From NCBI RefSeq assembly GCF_004010195.1, contig NC_057754.1, positions 4,905,609 through 4,939,746 of the forward strand: a stretch of 34,138 nucleotides of DNA. The letters run 5' to 3'. How positions within the stretch are numbered: the first letter of the stretch is position 1; each line of letters begins with the position of its first letter. The notes under the pieces were generated by a model. The model had not been told where the DNA came from. It searched no databases and saw nothing but the letters and a program-made list of their open reading frames with translations. The position numbers and the translations under genes are program-made. Origin of the DNA: Chiloscyllium plagiosum (taxonomy: Eukaryota). Below are positions 2,174 to 30,162 of the stretch, one piece after another.

Positions 2174-2736
2174 GAGGTGCTGGTGTTGGACTGGGGTGGA
2201 CAAAGTAAAAAAAAAATCACAGAACACTAGGTTGTAGTCCAACAGGTTTATTTGGAAGTACTAGCTTTCAGAGCACTGCTCCTTAATCAGGTAGCTGTGG
2301 AGCAGGATCATAAGACACAGAATTTATAGCAAAAAATGACAGTGTCATGCAACTGAAACAATATATTGAACAAACCTAGATTGCTGTTAAGTCTTTCATC
2401 TTTTAGAATGGGTTGCAGGTTTTGGTTCATTAATATGTAAATCCCAGAACTTCTTTTAAGTCACATTCTCAAGATAACTTAAGATAACAAAAAAAATCTC
2501 AGCTCATAATTAATTAAAGGTGTGCGGTTAGAGTCTGTCTGTATCCCATTCTTGAGTCAGACTGGTTCTGTTTCCAAAGTAGGAATTTATAAAATGTTAA
2601 TGGATTGACTACCTGCAGATATGTGCTTTTTGAGCAAAATAGAATGTGTCTGCAAATACAATTTATAAATTCTTACTTTGGAAGTAGAACAAGCCTGACT
2701 CAAGTTTGGGATACGTACAGACTCTAACCTCACACC
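2174..2736 (-). mobile_element. Non-autonomous Penelope-like element with hammerhead motif and internal 75-bp inverted repeat
   Basis: Same terminus as the 6906, 7653 and 16378 elements (ggtgttggactggggt..aatcac..caacaggtttatttggaag). Minus-strand motif at 2259-2293: tac-CTGATTA-a-ggagc agt gctct-GAAA-gcta-gta. Inverted arms at 2519-2593 and 2662-2736. Confidence 0.75.
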
Positions 2737-2739
2737 AAT

Positions 2740-2908
2740 TCACCCTCACTTGCACATCTTTGGATTGTGGGAGGAAACCGGAGCAACCCCAAGGAGACAT
2801 GGGGAGAATGTGCAAACTCCATACAGACAGTCACCCGAGGCTGGAATCTAACCTGGGTCTCTGATGCCGTGAGGCAGCGGTGCTAACCACTGTGCCACCG
2901 TGCTGCCC
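2740..2908 (-). mobile_element. HE1-type V-SINE (tRNA-derived), 5' part
   Basis: Minus strand gggcagcacggtggcacagtggttagc (A box), ggttagattcc (B-box-like) and V-domain ggagtttgcacattctcccc..ccggtttcctcccacaatccaaagatgtgc. Confidence 0.88.
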
Positions 2909-4330
2909 TATCTTGAACAAGATGATATAGAAGATGAGCAAAACAAGGATGGAGTACAACTGAAATTCAAAAGCTATATATTTGAAGAAGGTGATGGATA
3001 CACATGAGCTTTAGACATCTACGCAGTATCTATTTCAGGAGGAGCCCAGTGAAGAGTTTAGTGGAGAGGAGGAGGTAGTATCTTGCAATTCAACTTCTCT
3101 TGAAGAAATACTTATAATGCAAAATCATCCATGAATGGAGCAGAGGGTGAAGATGATGAAAATCCAGCAAGCAGCAATGATTGGAATTGAAATTTGTGAA
3201 GAATGACATTCAGGGACATGGCTGCAAGAAGAAAATGGACAAGAGATGAAGGTAGGATGATATAGCATACTTAGAAAAGATAGAGTAGATGATAGTAAGG
3301 AAGACTTTGCATGTGAAAGTACCTAATATGACACCATCTTCAGTGGATTGGAGGAGCTGCGAATGACACTGGAGTAAGAAATGGACTTTGAAAATTTCAT
3401 TGATGCTTATCACAAAATCCAAACAATACATGAAGAAGAGAATATTGACGTTGGTACTACAGTGGAGGCTGGTGCAATTGCAACATTTAAAAGGCACCTG
3501 GATGAGTATACGAATAGGAAGGGTTTAGAGGGATGTAGGGCAAGTGCTGGTACATGGGACTAGAATAATTTACAAGATCTGGATGGCATGAATGAGTTGG
3601 ACTGAAGGGTCTGTTTCCATGCTGTATATCTCTATGACTCTCAGGCAGCTGGGTCCTCAGTTTGAGCAACTGTATTTCAAACTTCTCCATCTTTCCATTG
3701 CATATGAGACATATCAAGAAGACAGTGACAAATAATATCACCCATTTGTGACTGATCTGTTACAGATTTTTTTTAATATACGGGCATGTGCATATTTTGA
3801 AAATGCTAGAATTCTTGGATTCTGGTTGTATGGATACAAGTTCAGCTTCATGGAAGTTACAGTACTGTATATGAATGCACTTGATATACAGAACATGAAC
3901 ATGGTTTGATTTTTATCCCTTCTCCAAGATTATAATCTGTGTTATTTTCTTTCAAATTTTCCAAAGTCTGTCACCTTTTTGTATTTTTGGATCTAGCTGC
4001 TGATGAAGGATATGCATATTTATTAGAATTCTCTGGCCAAAGTGCTTCCTTCACAACCCCAGAATCGAGTTACAGTGTTGAAATGGAATGGATCATGAAA
4101 TGCTGTGGAATTCAAAATGTGTATATTTTCCATTTCCATTGCAAATGAGGATGTCCTGTTATGGAGGAATCCTTTTCTGAGTTTAATGCTGCAGAACACT
4201 AACCTGAAGATAGACTTTTACATTGTAATATAGGCACAATTTATTGTACAGTACTTCAAAGTACAAAGTTCATACAAATGTATTATATTTTCTAATGATT
4301 AGAAATAAAGCTTCACTTATACTACAAAAA
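2909..4330 (+). pseudogene. NEK1: NEK1 processed pseudogene (C-terminal coding region plus probable 3'UTR), interrupted by a CR1 fragment
   Basis: Manual translation gives LEQDDIEDEQNKDG..IFEEGD..HEL*TSTQYLFQEEPSEEFSGEEE..NGAEGEDDENPASS..EE*HS..YDTIFSGLEELRMTLE*EMDFENFIDAYHKIQTIHEEENIDVGTTV [CR1 3461-3641] RQLGPQFEQLYFKLLHLSIAYETYQEDSDK* (stop 3733-3735). This is collinear with the recalled human NEK1 tail (..[129 protein letters not shown]). It has stops, frameshifts and no introns. AATAAA at 4304-4309 is followed by an A5 remnant at 4326-4330. Confidence 0.88.
3461..3641 (+). mobile_element. CR1 (HER1-like) 3' end inserted in the NEK1 retrocopy
   Basis: VEAGAIATFKRHLDEYTNRKG end of ORF2 plus 3'UTR ending ctctatgactct; closely similar to 16060-16232. 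Confidence 0.9.
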
Positions 4331-5285
4331 TATAAGCTGTCAAAAACACCTCAACCATGAAACTCCTTGATGGAGATGGCACCAATCCAATTTCTGCTAG
4401 AGGTTGAGTGAGGTGTGGATTGAGAATTGGTTGTGCCAGAATTCAGTTTTATTAAACAGGGCCTTTTAAAAAATATCTGGTGGATGTGGTTGTGGATTTG
4501 TTGGAATTTTGCCTCACCTGCCTCTGAAATTTCCTGGGAATGAAGAGTTCATTAGTTCTGTTTATGCTCAGCAGGGTTTTGAATTTAAACCAGAATTCTG
4601 TTCAACCAGGTTTCTGCCCTGTTTACAACTTCAAATTCTGAACCTGTGGTAGGAGTGTTGTGTGCACTTTATGAATGCTTCATATGCCTGACAAATAACT
4701 TGTATATGAAAGAAAAACAACTTTTCTTAGAGAGCCTGAAGTAGTTCCTTTTTAAGGGTCACTGATTAGGCTTGTCAACATTGAATTACACAGCACTTAC
4801 AGCACAGAAATAGGCCATTTGCCACCCTTTAAACTCCACATGGGGCTTTCTCACTCTTGTTCATCTCATCCAGTGAGCAAAACCTTCTATTCGTTTCTCC
4901 TTAAGTTTCCCCTTAAATGCATTTAATTCTTGATATATTCCCCTGCCTTCCAAAATAATGCAGGGTGCATGGTTAGCATGCACAGAATATATTTTCTCCT
5001 TTTGTACATGAAATTTGCAGTTGCGGGCATTTGATAGGGTGAGGGTGTGGTGGTCTGCACAACTGTTACAGAGCTTGCTTTGCATTTTTGAGTAGTTGTC
5101 TGGTAGTTACAAGCACGAATGTTTGGCACCTATTTAAAGGCCCACCAGCAAACTACATCATACATAAGTAGGATGTCATTTAACAAAAGAAGCGTTTTAT
5201 GGGATAATGCAAGAAGTGTTATTTAGATTGAACATTTTCTCAGCAAGAACAAGTTTTACAGTATTGTTTCTGAAACTTTTAACAG

Positions 5286-5869: not shown

Positions 5870-6319
5870 AGTGGTTAGGAGGGCATACTTGGGGATATGA
5901 TCAACATGATACTCCCCAAGCAGGTGGTCTACTCCCAGCTTTGAAATGGAAGGCAAGCCCCAGGTGGACAGAGAAGCACTTCATTAATACCCTCAAGGCC
6001 TCACAGGCGAATTGTGGCATTCCCACAGACACCTCATTGGCCAAGACCATCTAAAGTGAAGGAGGAGCATTCTGGAAGAGCACTTTCTGACTTACCGTCA
6101 GGGAGAAGTGGAAGCCAGGCAAAAACAGTGTAAGGAGCACGCTTCCACATTACTACCCCATCCACCCCTTCCCATGACCACCTTCTGTCCCAAGTGTAAC
6201 AGAGCCTGCAGTAGCTGCATCGGTCTGTACAATCACCTGTGGACACACCCTCTTAGTGGAAGAGAGTCATCCTCATCTATGAGGGACTGCTGCTGCTGCT
6301 GTTGATGATGATGATGATG
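5870..6319 (+). mobile_element. RTE-clade LINE 3' end
   Basis: Remnants LPKQVVYSQL*NGRQAPGGQR, TLKAS, CGIPTDT and CPKCNRACSSCIGLYNHLWTH (C-terminal C2H2 motif typical of RTE ORFs), ending in a (ctg)n(gat)n microsatellite tail. Confidence 0.85.
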
Positions 6320-6905
6320 CTTGGAGAGGGTAATAGTGTACCAGACGGATATAAAACAAAATTGAGTAGATTTGGAAGCTGATGATCAAAATATATTAAA
6401 TGACATCATACTGCAATTGCATAATGCTCCAAACTAACTATATCGGGTTTGCCATTCACTGAAATATTAAAATGCTGGAATGCAGCAGAGAGATCCTAAG
6501 CAGCTGCCAAATGTCTGAGCCTCTCACCACAAAGAGAGCCTAAAAAGATGGTGTCGTTATTGTTTTAAAGGATAAAGCTGTGATTTTAAATTAGGTACCT
6601 GATGGTGAATGGTAGGATAAAAGTAAAACTGGAACTTGACTTCAAAGTAAACCTTGCCATTAGGATGAGACACAGGTCGAACTTCATATTGGATACTATT
6701 GGATTGACCAGTTCTGTTCCTCAGCACAAGACAAATCCAACTCAAAGGGCAAATTTGAAAATATATATTTGCTTTTTGGCTGACATCCTGGAACAGCATT
6801 TAACCCCATGTTCTATTTCGGCAAGCATACTATCCAGGTAACCAGGCATAATTGTCTGCATTTTCACTTTGAGCTCTTATCCGTTTGCTACCTTGATTTG
6901 CCTTG

Positions 6906-7103
6906 ATTTGGAGATGCTGATGTTGGACTGGGGTGTACAATGTTAAAAATCACACAACACCAGGTTAGAGTACAACAGGGTTATTTGGAAGCACCAGCTT
7001 TCGGAGCTCTGCTCCTTCACCTGATGAAGGAGCAGCGCTCCGAAAATTAGTGCTTCCAAATAAACCTGTTGGACTATAACCTGGTCTTGTGTAATTTTTA
7101 GCT
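6906..7103. mobile_element. Palindromic non-autonomous Penelope-like mini-element with hammerhead core and 13-bp TSD
   Basis: TSD ttgatttgccttg at 6893-6905 and 7104-7116. Inverted arms at ~6945-7019 and ~7025-7099. Plus-strand motif cac-CTGATGA-a-ggagc agc gctcc-GAAA-atta-gtg at 7018-7052. Confidence 0.85.
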
Positions 7104-7652
7104 TTGATTTGCCTTGCGCCTGAAACCCTTCACCATTTGGCTGTTACTGCTGTCATTTACCATGTGTTCTTTTCTTTTAATCACTTCACATTGGCACAAT
7201 CTTCAGTCATTGTGTTTTTGAACTCTGGAAATCTACTCCAAACACACTTATTCTTGTTAATTTTCTCCTGCCTCTTCAATCTTCTCCTTTTACTCCTGTT
7301 CACTGTCCCATTTTCATACTGTTGCATTACGTGTAAGTCCTGTATAACTATAAGTTGCTATGCTTTGGATTATATGTGCAATTATGTGAGATCTTGCTAT
7401 GTAGACAGTTGAATGGTTTGCACTATAGATATATACCCAATGACTCGTTAGAAGTTTTGAAATGTAAACTGTTGAAAAATACACAATGCACAAATTTAAT
7501 TTCTGCAACTATGCAGACATTTTATACCTGTTGAAAATCAGGCTCTTTTCCTTTCACTTGTGATGAAGTTAAATTGTTCAAATAACTTGTTTTTCTGTAG
7601 ACAAACTAAAATGCAGTTATACAGCATGCCAAGACATAGCCCTTTGGTACAA

Positions 7653-7830
7653 AATTAAAAATCACACAACACCAGGTTATAGTCCAACAGGTTTAATTGG
7701 AAGCACACTAGCTTTCGGAACGATGTTCCTTCATCAGGTAATAGTGGAGGGCTTGATCGTAACACAGAATTTATAGCAAACATTTACAGTGTGATGTAAC
7801 TGAAATTATACATTAAATAGTTGATTGATT
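7653..7830 (-). mobile_element. Non-autonomous Penelope-like mini-element with 13-bp TSD
   Basis: TSD ccctttggtacaa at 7640-7652 and 7831-7843; homologous to 2210-2370. Confidence 0.85.
7706..7740 (-). ncRNA. Minimal type I hammerhead ribozyme motif, intact core
   Basis: Minus strand UAC-CUGAUGA-A-GGAAC AUC GUUCC-GAAA-GCUA-GUG. Stem I is UAC/GUG, stem II is 5 bp and stem III is the palindrome AGCU. Confidence 0.75.
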
Positions 7831-8300: not shown

Positions 8301-8644
8301 GGGAAAGCTGGTGGCTCAGTGGTTAGCACTGCTTCCTCACAGCACGATGGACTGAAGTTCAGTTCCAGCTTCGGGGGACTGTCTGTGTGGGGTTTACATG
8401 TTCTCTCTGTGTCTGCAATGGTTTCCTCCAGTTTCTCCAGTTTCCTCCCACAGTCGAAAGATACGCAATTTAGGTAGGTTGGCTATGCTACATTGCCCAT
8501 TGGGTCCAGGGATTTGTATGCTAGGTGGATTAGCCATGGGAAATGCAGGGTTACAGGGATAGGGTAGGGTGATGGGTCTGGTGGGATACTCTTTGGAGGG
8601 GCTGAATGACCTGCTTCCACACTGTAGGGATTCTATGATACTCT
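8301..8644 (+). mobile_element. HE1-type V-SINE, near full length
   Basis: A box ggtggctcagtggttagc, V-domain, and a CR1-like tail ending cttccacactgtagggattctatga. Confidence 0.88.
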
Positions 8645-12310: not shown

Positions 12311-12585
12311 GGTGTCACGTTGTTCTGTGATTAACACTGCTGCTGTTGATTCCATCCTCAGGTAACTATCTGTGTGGAGTTGGCACATTCTTCCCTTGTC
12401 TGTGTGAGTTTCCTCCAGGTGCTCCTGTTTCCTCTTGCTGTCCAAATATGTGCATGTTAGATGGATTAGCTGTGCTAAATTGTCCCATAGTGTCCAAGGA
12501 TTTGAAGGCTAGGCCATGGAAGATGTGGTGTAGACTTGCTGAGCTGAATGGCCTGCTTCCACATTGTAAGGATTCATTTATTTTA
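12311..12585 (+). mobile_element. HE1-type V-SINE (decayed)
   Basis: tctgtgtggagttggcacattcttccc..tttcctccaggtgctcctgtttcctc V-domain and a gctgaatggcctgcttccaca tail. Confidence 0.85.
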
Positions 12586-14735: not shown

Positions 14736-16232
14736 TTACTTTTTGTCATTTATGTAAATGATTTGGATGTAAACATAGGAGGTATAGTTAGTAAGTTTGC
14801 AGATAACACCAAAATTGGAGGTGTAGTGTACAGCGAAGAAGGTTACCTCAGATGGGCCAATGAGATCTTGATTAGATGGGCCAATGAGGAATGGCACATG
14901 GAGTTTAATTTAGATAAATGGGAGGTGCTGCATTTTGGGAAACCAAATCTTAGCAGGACTTGTAAACTTAATGATAAAGTCCTAGGGAGTGTTGCTGAAC
15001 AAAGAGATCTTGGAGTGCAGGTTCATACCTCCTTGAAAGTAGAGTCGTAGATAGATAGGATAGTGAAGAAGTTTGGTATGCTTTTCTTTATTGGTCAGAG
15101 TATTGAGTATAGGAGTTGAGAGGTCATGTCCCGGCTGTGCAGGACATTGGTTAGGCCACTTTTGGAATATTGCATGCAGTTCTGATCTCCTTCCTATCAG
15201 AAGGATGTTGTGAAACTTGAAAAGGTTCAGAAAAGATTTACAAAGATGTTGCCAGGGTTGGAGGATTTGAGCTATAGGGAGAGGCTGAATAGGCTGGGGC
15301 TATTTTCCCTGGAGCGTCAGATGCTGAGGGATGACCTTATAGAGGTTTATAAAATCATGAGGGGCATGAATAAGATAAAAAGACAAGGTTCTGAATGTGG
15401 TTTGCTCACTGAGCTGGAAGGTTCATTTGCAGATGTTTAGTCACCCTGCTAGTTAACGTTGTGTCCTTCTTTATCTGCATGTAAGGATACTAGTATATGG
15501 ACATCAACTAGCTACAAAACGACGTGACCCTCACTAGTATCCTTACATACAGATACATACTAGGACAAGCCAAACAGAGACACACACAAGAATTCCTAGA
15601 AGCATGGCATTCCAACTGGAACTCTATCAACAAACACATCCAATTAGACCCCCATCTACCACCCCCTGAGAAAAAGAGCAGTAAATGACATCACCACAGG
15701 AAATGACATCACGGAAAATGACATCACCAACCCAAAGAAAACCAAACATATAAATAGAAAGCAGGAATTATCAGCAGTGCTTCGCCCGGAGGCCCACTGC
15801 AGATGTTACCTAGCAGGGTGACAAAACGTCTGGAAATGAACCTTCCAGCTCAGCGAGCAAACCTACGTCTAAAATTCAACCTGAGCTACAAATCTTCTCA
15901 AAACTTGCTAAATAGACAAGATCTTTTCCCTGGGGTGGGGGAGTCCAGAACTATAGGGCATAGGTTTAGGCTTAGAGGGGAAAGATATAAAAGATACTTA
16001 AGGTGCAACGTTTTCAAACAGAGGGTGGTGTGTGTGTGGAATGGGCTGACAGAGGAAGTGGTGGAGGCTAGTACAATTGCAACATTTAAAAGGATGTGTA
16101 TATGAATAGGAAGGCTTTGGCGGAATATAGGCCAGGTGCTGGAAAGTGGGACAAGATTGGGTTGGGATATCTGGTTGGCATGGACAAGTTGGACCGGAGG
16201 GTCTGTTGCCGTGCTGTACATATCTATGACTC
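14736..16232 (+). mobile_element. 5'-truncated CR1 (HER1-like) RT plus 3'UTR, split by a Penelope insertion
   Basis: LFVIYVNDLDVNIGGIVSKFADNTKIGG, WHMEFNLDKWEVLHFG, LVRPLLEYCMQF, LEKVQKRFTKMLPGL..DLIEVYKIMRG, then QDLFPGVGESRTIGHRFRLRG and a ctatgactct tail. Confidence 0.93.
15388..15908 (+). mobile_element. Penelope-like element 3' end (GIY-YIG C-terminus plus pLTR) with inverted 5' pLTR piece
   Basis: TSD taaa(a/t)agacaag at 15376-15387 and 15909-15920. HQLATKRRDP and ILGQAKQRHTQEFLEAWHSNWNSINKHIQLDP. Hammerhead-like cca-CTGCAGA-t-gttacc tagcag ggtgac-aaaa-cgtc-tgg at 15794-15833. 15397-15457 is the reverse complement of 15805-15866. Confidence 0.88.
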
Positions 16233-16377
16233 TGTGTCTCTAAGTCTGTCTGTTCTTGGAGGCTTATTTGCTCTCATTAAGTAGTAGGTGACTGACAGCC
16301 TCAAATCTTCATTGTGAGTTTTGCCAAGGAACCTAAATTTATATAGCTATTGCAGTATTGAATCATAGAATCCCTAT

Positions 16378-16554
16378 GTTAAAAATTACACACCAGGTTA
16401 TTCTCCAACAGGTTTAATTCACCTGATTCTTCGACAATCACCTGATGAAGGAGCGTCGCTCCGAAAGCTAGTGTGCTTCCAATTAAACCTATAACCTGGT
16501 GTTGTGTGATTTTTAATTTTGTACACCCCAGTCCAACACCGGCATCTCCAAATC
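16378..16554 (+). mobile_element. Non-autonomous Penelope-like mini-element with 12-bp TSD
   Basis: TSD tagaatccctat at 16366-16377 and 16555-16566. Partial inverted terminus at 16378-16419, and the full terminus ends ccagtccaacaccggcatctccaaatc. Confidence 0.87.
16439..16473 (+). ncRNA. Minimal type I hammerhead ribozyme motif, intact core, sense to the host gene
   Basis: CAC-CUGAUGA-A-GGAGC GUC GCUCC-GAAA-GCUA-GUG. Stem I is CAC/GUG, stem II is 5 bp, stem III is the palindrome AGCU, with predicted cleavage after CUA (16470). Confidence 0.8.
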
Positions 16555-17468
16555 TAGAATCCCTATAGTATGGAAGCAGGCCATTTGGCTCATCGAGTCC
16601 ACACTGCCCCTCAGAAGAGCATTCCACCCAGAACCACACCCACACTCCTGCACCTCTGCATTTCCCATTGCTAATCCACCTAGCCTATCCATCTCTGGAT
16701 GTTATGGGCAATTTAGTACGGCCAATGCATCTAACCTGCACACCTTTGTATTATGGGAAGAAACCGGAGTACCTGGAGGAAACCCATGCAGAGAATGTGC
16801 AAACTACACACAGATAGTCGCCCAAAGGTTGAATCGAACCAGGGTCCCTGGCGCTGTGAGGCAGCAGTGATAACCATTCAGCTGTCCCATTTGAATACTG
16901 AGCAATGAAAATGTTTCGTACCTTCAGAAAAGTTATTGGCAAAAGTAACCTCTAGAGAATTAAATCAATAATTAAATAAATAGTAAGAAAACAAAAATGT
17001 TGAAGATTTCTAACCTGTAGTAGCAGTGGACTGTATTGTTTATAATTAAACCATTTTGGAATAAAAAAGTATCAGAGTTGGAGGGAGACTCAATGTATGT
17101 TGCCTTTCCTGAAATTTTTAGGATCAACCATTTCTACCAGCAATAATTGCTTTAAAAATATGCTGAGAAGTGTGGGAGAGTCAGTAGTGCAGAAGTGCAC
17201 TTTTCTTTGGCAGTGTTGAGTGATTTGTAGTAACTTATCCACCTAAAAGCCGTTGAATGTAAAGTGAGACAAAGGCAATTATACTGTTGCTTTTGAGTAT
17301 TCCACAATGGACTGTGTCATCTTACTTTTGAATGTAGAATTATTTCATAGCACCCATCTCAACACCGTGTTTTCTGTTACAGCACATACCCAATCATTTC
17401 TATCTAAAGCAAGTAGTAAGAATTTAGTGATTATTTCTGATCAATTTTAAATAGTATTGTGATTATGA

Positions 17469-17868
17469 TGCCTAAACATGGGAGATTCCCAGTACAAGAT
17501 ACGTTATTTCCCCATTGGTAATTTATCAAAGATATTTATGTGACTTCTTCTCATATTCCTGGGCTCTTCCAAATCACTTGATGGGTGGGAGCAAAGAAAT
17601 GGTATTAATTGGATAGCTTTGCCAAAGAACCTGCAGCAGTGCAGTGGATCACATGGTCTCCAGTTGCCTAAACATGGGAGATTCCCAGTACAAGATACTG
17701 TTATTTCCCTGTTTAGACCATTGGTAGTTTAACAAAGATATTTATGTGGCTTCTTCTCATATTCCTGGGCTATTCCAAATCAGTTGGTGGGTGGGAGCAA
17801 AGAAATGGTATTAATTGGATAACTTTGCCAAAGGACCTGCAGCATTGCAGTGGGTCAAATTGTCTCCA
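17469..17868. repeat. Local tandem duplication, two copies of ~200 bp
   Basis: Units 17469-17664 and 17665-17868 both start tgcctaaacatgggagattcccagtacaagatac and end gtctcca; roughly 90% identical by eye with small indels. Confidence 0.95.
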
Positions 17869-19811: not shown

Positions 19812-19899
19812 TTGGGTATATGAATAGGAAGGGTTTGGGGGGATATGGGTCAGGTGCTGACAGGTTGGACTAGACTGGGTTGCAATATCTGGTCGGCAT
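19812..19899 (+). mobile_element. CR1 3' fragment truncated by a Penelope insertion
   Basis: gggtatatgaataggaagggtttggggggatatgggtcaggtgctg..atctggtcggcatg, matching 16097-16181. Confidence 0.85.
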
Positions 19900-20186
19900 G
19901 TAGTCTAGGTAGCTGTGGGAGTCGGTCGGTTTATAGTAAATGTCCATGTTGATTCGGTCGCCCGAGATAGAAATGGAAAGGTCTAGGAAGGGGAGGGAGG
20001 AGTCTGAGACGGTCCAGGTGAATTTGAGGTCGGGGTGGAAGGTGTTGGCAAAGTGGATGAACTGTTCAACCTCCTCGTGGGAGCATGAGGCAGCGCCGAT
20101 ACAGTCATCGATATAGCGGAGGAAAAGGTGGTGCCAGTGTAGCTGCGGAAGATGGACTGTTCCACATATCCTACGAAGAGGCACAT
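19898..20186 (-). mobile_element. Penelope-like RT fragment (little decayed)
   Basis: CLFVGYVEQSIFRSYTGT / HLFLRYIDDCIGAASCSHEEVEQFIHFANTFHPDLKFTWTVSDSSLPFLDLSISISGDRINMDIYYKPTDSHSYLDY, with the RYIDD catalytic motif and the LPFLD and YKPT motifs of PLE RTs. Confidence 0.92.
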
Positions 20187-20196
20187 ATCCTACGAA

Positions 20197-22613
20197 CCCT
20201 AGCTATGCCTGCCTCTTTGTCGACTACATTGAACAGCCCTTCTTCAATAACTACACAGGTACTGTGCCCCAACTCTTCCGCTGTTACATCAATGACTGTT
20301 GAAACAGTTCAACGACTTCGCCCAAAACTTACACCCAGCCCTTAAATTCTCTTGGTCTGTCTTGGACACCTCCCTCCCCTTCCTTGACCTCTCTATTTCC
20401 ATCTCCAGCGATAGTCTCTAGATGGACCTTTAGTATAAACCCACAGACTCTCATAACTACCAGGACTATACCTCCTCCCAGCCAGTATCCTGCAATAACT
20501 CCATTCCCAATATCTCCACCTCCTCCACATCTGCTCGGATGAGGAGACATTCCACTCTCAAGCATGCCAGATGTCCACCTATTTTGAACAATGCGTTTTT
20601 CCCCACTCTGTCATCCAGACAGTCCTCCAGCGCATCTCCTCCATTCCCCTCTCCAAATGCAATAAAGACAGGGTTCCCCTTGTCCTCATCTACCACCCCA
20701 CCAGTCTCTGCATCCAATGTATTATCCTTAAACATTTCTGCCAACACTAATTAGACTCCACCACCAAGAACATCTTCCCCTCCTACCCTTCTCTACCTTC
20801 TGCAAGGATCTTTCCCTTTGCCAATCCTTGGTTTGCGCCACTCTCCCCACGAATCCCCCTGAACCCCCCAGGTACCTTCCCCTGCAACCGTGAAAGATGC
20901 AAAACCTGCTGGCACGCCATCCCCCCTCACTTTCATCCAGGGCCCCAAACAGTCCTTCTAGTTGAGACAGAGGTTGACCTACCTCTTCTCCAACCTAGTT
21001 TACTGTAACCGGTGCTCTCGATGTGGTCTTCTCTACATCGGTGAGACCAAACGTAAACTCATGGCACGTTTCGCCGGGCCACAGGGACTGACCTGACCTC
21101 CCAGTCACCGCCCATTTAATTCCCCTTCCCACTCCCTTTCCGACAGGCCATTCTTGACGTCCTCCATTGCCACAGCGAATCACACAGCACATTGGAAGAA
21201 CAACACCTCATCTTCCGCCTGGGCAGCCTACAGTCCGGAGGACTCAATGTTGAGTTCTCCAATTTCAAATATGCTCCCTTCCCATGAAACCGACTCCCTT
21301 TCCAGCCCTCCCCTCCCCCTCCCTTCCATTCTTTTGATCGACCCTTCCACCTATCAACCGGATTCATTCCTCCCATCGCACAACTAGGTCGTACTCTCCA
21401 CCTGTGTTCACCTGTCCCTAGGAGAAAGTGAGAACTGCAGATGCTGGAGATTGGAGATGAAAAGTGTGGTGCTGTAAAAACTGCAGGTTAGGCAGCGTCT
21501 GAGGAGCAGGAGAGTTGACATTTCGGGCATAAACCCTTCATTGGGAATGTGGGGTCTGGGGGGAAGTTGAGAGATAAATAGGAGGGTAGGGGTGATTGGG
21601 GAGGGTGGGTTAGAGCTGGGAAGGCAATAGGTTGATGCAAGTCGGGAGTGATCGTGATAGATCAGAGGGGAGGGTGGAGTGGATAGGTGGGAAGGAAGTT
21701 GGACAATTCAAGAGAGTGGTGCCGAGCTGGAGGGTTGGATCTGGGATGAGGTGGGGTGAGGGGAGGTTAAGAAATTAGTGAAATCGATGTTTATGCCATA
21801 TAGTTGAAGGGTCCAAAGGCGGAAGATGAGGTGTTCTTCCTTCAGTCATTAGGAGGCTTGATTTGGCAGTGGAGGCGGCCCGGGTCTTGCATGTCCTTGG
21901 CAGAGTGGAAGGGGAAGTTGAAGTGGTCGGCCACGGGGTGGTGTGATTGTTTGGTGCGTGCATTCCAGAGATGTTCCCAGAAATGTTCTGCGAGTTGGCG
22001 TCCTGTCTCCCTAACGTAGAGGAGACTACATCGAGAACAACAGACGCAGTTTGGATGTGCAGGAAAGTCTCTGCCGGATGTGAAAAGGTCCTTTGGGGCC
22101 TTGGACGGAGGTGAATGGGTAGGTGTAGCTGCCGGTTTTACAGCTCTTGCGGTGGCAAGGAAAAATGCCAGGTGTGAAGGGTGATTTGGTGAGGGGCGTG
22201 GACCTAACAAGGGAGTCATGGAGGGAAAGGTCTCTGTGGAATGCAGATGGGAGTGGGGAGGGAAATATCCCTTTGGTGGGGTCTGATTATAGGTGGCAGA
22301 AATGGTGGAGGATAATGCGCTGTATCTGGAAATTAGTCGGGTGGAAGGTGAGCACCAGGGGAATTCTATCCCTACTAGGGTTCTGTTCACAGGTTCTATC
22401 ACCTATCCCTACCTCACCACCCTGCCCCCTCCCCACCCAACTAACCCCCCCGACCACTATCTGCAGCTCCCCTTACACTCACCCCCAGTCCAGTAGAAGG
22501 GTTGCCCCAAACCGTTGACTTCTGCACCTCCTGATGTTGCCCGGCTTGCTGTGTTCTTCCAACCTCCTGTTTGTCTACCTTGGACCAACATCTGAAGTTT
22601 GTTTTTGTCTCTG
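20197..22613 (+). mobile_element. Penelope-like element (RT, GIY-YIG, pLTR), decayed, split by a nested PLE
   Basis: PSYACLFVDYIEQ..LPFLDLSISISSD..YKPTDSHNYQDY; NLVYCNRCSRCGLLYIGETKRKLMARFA (GIY-YIG); LEEQHLIFRLGSLQ. The 3' UTR resumes at 22399 and ends in a pLTR with a decayed hammerhead (22487-22520). Confidence 0.9.
21421..22398 (-). mobile_element. Penelope-like element 3' half nested in another PLE, 13-bp TSD
   Basis: TSD tcacct(g/a)tcccta at 21408-21420 and 22399-22411. Minus strand CVCCSRCSLLYVRETGRQLAEHFWEHL..HHPVADHFN. pLTR with decayed hammerhead at 21513-21546. Confidence 0.9.
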
Positions 22614-30010: not shown

Positions 30011-30162
30011 ATGAACGTGAAGCGGTGCAGAAGAAAACGTTCACCAAATGGGTAAATTCACACTTAGCAAGAGTGACCTCCCGTATCACGGACTTGTATA
30101 CGGACCTGAGGGATGGGCGAATGCTGATTCGGTTGCTGGAGGTGCTGTCGGGTGAGCAGCTG
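30011..30162 (+). CDS. SPTBN2: Beta-spectrin internal coding exon (CH1 actin-binding domain), most like non-erythrocytic beta-III spectrin
   Basis: Polypyrimidine tract and acceptor tttccttctttgttgcag|ATGAACG (phase 1); donor CTG|gtcagt; 152 nt. Translates (D)[50 protein letters not shown], the beta-spectrin CH1 start. The family call is near certain. The paralog call is tentative (about 0.6; SPTBN1 and SPTB not excluded) and rests on VT, IRLL and EQL residues as recalled for fish/amphibian sptbn2. Confidence 0.93.

Follow-up and report, generated by a model that had tools for sequence, protein, structure and literature searches.

A decayed processed copy of the 3' end of a NEK1 mRNA in the genome of Chiloscyllium plagiosum

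Positions 2909-4330 of the DNA analyzed here are a decayed, processed copy of the 3' end of a NEK1 mRNA. All coordinates refer to the window, i.e., the whole stretch of 34,138 nucleotides from Chiloscyllium plagiosum. The assignment to a NEK1 parent, the origin from mRNA and the inclusion of the 3'UTR in the copy are supported, and the view of the locus as an ordinary, old and dead NEK1 processed pseudogene, one of a class common in sharks and rays, is well supported. Very probably, a spliced, polyadenylated NEK1 mRNA that contained a 25-codon cassette was reverse-transcribed in the germline of an ancestral shark, inserted into the genome and left to decay neutrally. The features that carry this reading, together with those that adjoin the copy, are as follows.

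2173-2736, no strand assigned: interspersed repeat; by self-BLAST it matches 6910-7106, 7657-7817 and 16440-16549 as well as itself, and it adjoins the broken end of the SINE
2735-2908, minus strand: 5' half of a tRNA-type SINE with A- and B-box-like motifs; its 5' end adjoins the retrocopy
2909-3213, plus strand: first coding part of the retrocopy, comprising the last part of one NEK1 exon and the exon after it; three stops and five frameshifts, aligned from 2912; matched by a parent-type contig in run X20 (3029-3180)
3214-3288, plus strand: copy of the NEK1 cassette exon, 75 nt or 25 codons, in frame at both ends, with one stop
3289-3422, plus strand: copy of the DDSEED...YNKIK exon, with two stops; a parent-type X20 piece begins at 3289
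3423-3461, plus strand: initial part of the penultimate coding exon, which follows the preceding exon directly, with no intron between them; two codons deleted
3462-3641, plus strand: CR1-type 3' fragment, 5'-truncated, a later insertion, 78% identical to 16061-16233
3642-3735, plus strand: remainder of the penultimate exon, the last junction (3721|3722) and the stop codon; 64% identity over 28 codons
3736-4303, plus strand: copy of the NEK1 3'UTR, with parent-type DNA and RNA matches
4304-4330, plus strand: AATAAA and, 16 nt after it, A5 (4326-4330), a probable polyadenylation signal and eroded tail
about 30011-30161, plus strand: beta-spectrin exon bounded by AG and GT, the start of the first calponin-homology domain (Pfam CH, E=2.2e-10)

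NEK1 identity and exon junctions

The NEK1-like reading runs through 2912-3461, resumes at 3649-3732 with the C-terminus YQEDSDK and ends at a TAA stop (3733-3735). A frameshift-aware alignment with horn-shark or whale-shark NEK1 gives 137 identical codons of 211 (65%); in the same columns, shark NEK1 orthologues are 94-97% identical among themselves. About 200 C-terminal NEK1-like codons ending in YQEDSDK had been recovered by hand in an earlier, sequence-only reading, and the 211 aligned codons bear this out. That reading was also right that the open reading frame at 3381 is a chimera: its ATG (3381) lies in a 61-codon stop-to-stop frame (3378-3563) that is part NEK1 and part CR1. The last ~219 residues are collinear with cassette-bearing shark and ray NEK1 (Heterodontus X2, P0200; Rhincodon, P0188; Pristiophorus X3, P0201) at 65% identity. 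Unlike these proteins, however, the copy lacks the kinase domain, everything upstream and all introns, and it is damaged by six stops, five frameshifts and the 180-nt CR1 insertion. Its coding capacity is lost, and it does not qualify as an intact, selected and expressed retrogene.

The best match had been expected to be NEK1, and phmmer, a profile search and the frameshift-aware alignment all point to it. With a 67-residue read-through of the copy, phmmer found 39 matches with E<=0.001 in a set of 1.84 billion proteins, the best at 1.5e-10, which is well beyond chance. Four of the ten whose names were examined were Nek1 or Nek1-like and the rest were generic Ser/Thr kinases or hypothetical proteins; a kinase domain was present in seven of the eight matches scanned. 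With a profile weighted to the window sequence, named NEK1 proteins of sharks and rays ranked among the highest matches (57-68% identity). A coelacanth-seeded search had no shark among the best 120 of 2063 matches, and a mixed profile recovered sharks. The same 67 residues gave one candidate and nothing significant in a word-indexed search, no match in a PDB sequence search and no Pfam family. The remaining 1181 residues of NEK1 have no match anywhere in the 34-kb window, which holds no other NEK1 exon. When NEK1 was sought upstream of the SINE and the repeat, the best tblastn hit (E=0.23) lay elsewhere in the window, and the score of 22 for 1800-2175 against upstream NEK1 was reached or exceeded by 39 of 73 background windows.

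Four junctions (3213|3214, 3288|3289, 3422|3423 and 3721|3722) are crossed without an intron and placed to the base, three of them from gene models of other vertebrates and from shark isoforms rather than from the parental gene of this species. A fifth is probable near 2975, because the gene models P0204, P0007 and P0029 lose homology there. These joins, together with a parent-type UTR match over 3795-4297, agree with the prediction that the copy spans several parental exon junctions and the 3'UTR. After KIK, 18 of the 39 phmmer matches read on as KIK-V and 21 are spliced; after YQE, seven of 39 read YQE-G and 13 are spliced as YQE-D. We infer that the KIK-V and YQE-G forms are gene calls running into a GT intron, which would place parental introns at 3422|3423 and 3721|3722. 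Parent-type RNA crosses 3422, both in X20 record 19 (3289-3436), where the reading of run X20 as RNA is a guess on library type, and in two of two raw X21 reads with the parent-type letter. A second DNA contig in run X18 (organism B) is counted at 3375 and 3699 and absent at 3419-3459. Such gaps in parental-DNA coverage can come from divergence alone: at 3741-3783, which lie within the last exon, parent-type DNA is likewise absent, and there divergence is the only explanation.

The cassette at 3214-3288 consists of 75 in-frame nucleotides that have no counterpart in bony-fish NEK1, and it is joined exactly at both ends in the copy. Its 25 residues are present in 7 of 256 NEK1 sequences that span the site (redundant top matches rather than a census), all from sharks or rays, and other isoforms of these groups skip it; none of the NEK1 sequences retrieved from bony vertebrates or Callorhinchus has it. 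Depth arithmetic on run X20, in which bin depths were reproduced to two decimals, points to a further piece, absent from the listing, that spans about 3211-3285 and has the same depth as the parent-type contig, so the cassette is probably in the X20 parent transcript too. It is well supported that germline mRNA already contained the cassette at the time of copying, and the copy would thus be a record of this shark and ray splicing event.

The shark and ray cassette contains Trp/Tyr and is alternatively included (proteins P0188, P0199, P0200, P0201, P0203, P0204, P0205 and P0226). One Chiloscyllium isoform has 13 more residues after it. By length arithmetic, the parent-type contig X20 record 19 exceeds the copy by about 75 letters at 3285-3289, where the cassette meets the next exon; these letters may be a second cassette exon.

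The two ends of the copy and later insertions

Between the stop codon and AATAAA lie 568 nt at 66.9% A+T, in agreement with the ~570 nt of AU-rich, UTR-like sequence noticed earlier, and parent-type UTR pieces match them. These are a DNA contig of run X18 over 3795-4269 (69 mismatches, 20 gaps) and a contig of run X20 over 4069-4208. Raw poly(A) single-cell reads from organism A (run X21) accumulate at 4042-4297 and share the alternative letters of the parent-type contigs. No parent-type read reaches beyond 4297, and the pieces listed for the 3' flank (4298-4800) include none of parent type. The accumulation fits a parental 3' end close to 4297, the AATAAA itself lying outside the coverage of the parental data.

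Of the proposed poly(A) remnant, AATAAA at 4304 and the A-run 16 nt later are present, but the run is only A5; it is not distinctive by itself, because 5 of the 25 AATAAA motifs on the plus strand of the window have A5 within 10-35 nt. A search for a target-site duplication found no repeat of at least 8 nt between 4312-4388 and the candidate 5' junctions, the latter disturbed by the SINE and a deletion. The one candidate, a single 7-mer, was rejected as lying on the wrong side of the A-run.

At the other end, NEK1 homology begins at most 3 nt from the 5' end of the antisense SINE, which we take to be HE1 and which by self-BLAST is 73-78% identical to 8310-8474, 12348-12460 and 16722-16876. The 3' half of the SINE was not found beyond the upstream repeat (score 21 against 1950-2175, with a background of 14-24 and a positive control of 133); the original 5' junction was therefore probably removed by deletion. 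What remains of the copy is indeed 5'-truncated, as had been claimed, but the true end supposed at 2909 is masked by the SINE and the junction is disturbed. The repeat at 2173-2736 is presumably a PLE, the label given to it in the sequence-only reading. Within it, 2519-2736 form a 218-nt inverted repeat that matches its own reverse complement at 74%.

The fragment inside the coding part, which we assume to be CR1 from its upstream peptide and its ATGACTCT-type end, shows sharp loose ends at both borders (3462 and 3641); its depth is very high in each of the four runs, and contigs of organism B enter it from both sides. The site has no target duplication, and about five parental codons were lost or scrambled. 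An insertion of this kind had been noticed before, with its start at 3461; the insertion is there, but it begins at 3462 (3462-3641). Pfam searches of 12 repeat-derived ORFs or frames of the window gave one spurious weak match and classified none of the 12, so the labels CR1, HE1 and PLE are provisional.

Age and genomic setting

Organism B has an orthologue with the same SINE edge, the same CR1 piece and the same 3' flank. It differs from the window at 17/601, 22/682 and 9/542 positions, i.e., by 2.8-3.2% in the copy and 1.7% in the flank. From organism C came a gap-free piece of 217 nt with eight differences; it is probably the orthologue, a reading that rests on the aligned piece at an organism C share of 0.06. 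The dating by other species that had been proposed is thus taken partway, in that both relatives carry the copy, in organism B with flank and in organism C probably. Parent-type pieces, RNA and DNA alike, differ from the copy by 13-15% (14.5-17% corrected), a figure biased low by an 80% filter. From these divergences, the insertion would have about five times the age of the A-B split under equal drift of the parent, and about ten times that age if the parent barely changed.

At seven sites (2924, 3015, 3131, 3228, 3273, 3315 and 3709), the copy is nearer to the horn-shark residue than to that of Chiloscyllium plagiosum, CpG decay being possible at 3131; at four sites where the horn shark alone differs (3066, 3243, 3282 and 3300), the copy sides against the horn shark. 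From these residues, the copy appears to keep the ancestral state where carpet-shark NEK1 changed, and to be old. If the genome is that of a carpet shark, the copy predates changes common to whale shark, zebra shark and bamboo sharks and is therefore expected in all of them. With this predicted distribution, it may serve as a presence/absence marker for shark phylogeny. Some of the damage is younger. At 3375 and 3699, organism B still has the parent's letter; the stop at 3375 is thus more recent than the A-B split. At 3443, run X10 (organism A) and organism B agree with each other against the window, which is likely a polymorphism.

The exon at 30011-30161 has beta-spectrins as its best PDB matches (E=2.8e-23 and 3.5e-23) and is the only host exon found; a motif search of the window showed no upstream spectrin exon. 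The copy was said to lie within a spectrin intron in the orientation of the host gene. The orientation is confirmed, copy and exon both being on the plus strand. The intronic location is plausible from the downstream exon on the same strand, the only spectrin exon in the window.

Origin and rival explanations

The sequence-only reading had considered a retrocopy notable in a genome dominated by CR1 and PLE elements. The literature argues against this. In a survey that covers 244 vertebrate genomes, cartilaginous fishes account for 14,081 retrocopies, or 5.4% of loci, which places them third, behind mammals and amphibians; outside mammals, the survey sees CR1 or Tx1 as the likely drivers of retroduplication (10.64898/2026.06.26.734816). 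According to the VGP paper, every assembly contains retrocopies (10.64898/2026.06.24.732306). Besides CR1 and Penelope, sharks are described as carrying Tx1 L1-like and RTE elements, with Tx1 L1-like repeats in both whale shark and elephant shark and no full LINE1 reported in the whale shark (PMC8455134).

The template would have been a spliced, polyadenylated NEK1 mRNA of the isoform with the 25-codon shark and ray cassette. Reverse transcription would have started from the 3' end of this mRNA in the ancestral shark germline, presumably as target-primed reverse transcription by a non-LTR element acting in trans, with insertion at this locus. A CR1 fragment would then have entered the coding part before the A-B split, and the SINE, another repeat and a deletion would have disturbed the 5' junction. 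LINE-mediated retroposition, as claimed earlier, agrees with an intronless, mRNA-derived and 3'-anchored copy, but nothing in the locus identifies the enzyme. We give a poly(A)-priming Tx1/L1-like element roughly an even chance. It is favored because poly(A)-recognizing L1-type elements are described as the established makers of retrocopies, whereas a LINE that recognizes 3' ends stringently requires its own 3' end (PMC3747384), and because whale shark and elephant shark both carry Tx1 L1-like repeats. CR1/L2 is a distinctly weaker candidate, and RTE, Penelope or a repair-templated event is weaker again.

A variant of this reading, in which CR1, another stringent element or break repair, and not an L1-like enzyme, made the retrocopy, is possible but doubtful. 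CR1 dominates shark genomes, with the whale shark reported to be without a full LINE1 (PMC8455134); the survey credits CR1 or Tx1 outside mammals, by correlation only (10.64898/2026.06.26.734816); and the absent target duplication and minimal tail would fit. However, a poly(A) signal lies close to the end of the copy, which bears no CR1 3' end, the requirement of stringent LINEs for their own 3' ends applies (PMC3747384), the inner CR1 piece is separate and later, and age and the disturbed 5' junction suffice to explain the missing hallmarks. Somewhat less probable still is the narrower version, in which CR1 or another stringent LINE acted in trans before the carpet-shark radiation and the locus is a dated fossil of CR1-driven retroduplication as well as of a shark- and ray-specific NEK1 splice isoform, of which the isoform part is well supported. 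If the sequence had instead arisen by DNA-level duplication or transduction of part of NEK1, or were the remnant of an ancient NEK1 paralogue, the lack of a clear poly(A) tail or target duplication would be expected. Four to five junctions are nevertheless joined exactly, including both ends of an alternative cassette, and neither another NEK1 exon in 34 kb nor a parent-type piece at 4298-4800 was listed. We regard this explanation as extremely improbable, and DNA-level duplication as largely refuted.

The copy, or its sense-oriented AATAAA, might also have been co-opted, as the early end of a short beta-spectrin transcript or as part of a non-coding RNA. Its position on the strand of the spectrin exon and the intact AATAAA are in keeping with this, as are four runs of one study (X10, X11, X12 and X15) that each hold 38-39% of the words of the stretch, the contig of X10 being near-identical and confined to 2890-3491, on the 5' side of the CR1 fragment. 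Run X10, however, is not on record as RNA and holds no parent mRNA pieces; a reduced-representation DNA library may account for runs of this type, or a local transcript. The raw X21 reads (about 2% of one run, organism A) speak against expression of the copy: the parent-type letter stands in every read (5/5 to 9/9) at each of the 12 diagnostic sites listed for 4102-4178, and the flank of the copy has zero depth in the sampled reads. At a thirteenth site, 4120, the X21 reads match the window, the change being listed in organism C only. Between A and B, the copy has diverged no more slowly than its flank and at least as fast. Co-option is thus very unlikely, and the copy most likely does nothing.

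As a decayed NEK1 processed pseudogene, the locus resembles the retrocopies surveyed in vertebrates in being an intron-less copy of a multi-exon mRNA, longer than 120 bp, with terminal junctions kept and a later repeat inside. Like 84% of the cartilaginous-fish retrocopies in the survey, it has no intact ORF, but unlike the 95.7% of survey copies that are species-specific, it is old and shared between species, a comparison in which the survey's sampling of close relatives may differ (10.64898/2026.06.26.734816). It differs from typical processed pseudogenes in that tail and target duplication are eroded. The 3'-anchored mRNA copy ending near a poly(A) signal is shared with mammalian L1-made retrocopies (PMC3747384), whereas no poly(A) tail or target-site duplication is demonstrable here; and in contrast to mammals, the host lineage is reported to lack full LINE1 and to carry Tx1 L1-like repeats (PMC8455134). 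No title in the literature searched concerns a shark NEK1 retrocopy, and the supplementary tables of both preprints may already list the locus. Young copies whose junctions are intact, rather than this old one, are the material from which to learn what reverse transcriptase produces retrocopies in genomes dominated by CR1.

Elsewhere in the window, a frame end with a CxxC...HxxxH motif followed by a (GAT)n run at 6060-6320 is, we assume, the 3' end of an RTE-type LINE, which suggests that the window holds more than CR1 and Penelope elements; Pfam gave no match for this frame. From the ORF list and self-BLAST, 17469-17868 are two tandem, diverged copies of a unit of about 200 nt. Nested, fragmented pieces on both strands, with several internal self-matches, form a cluster at 19813-22576 that we take to be Penelope-like.
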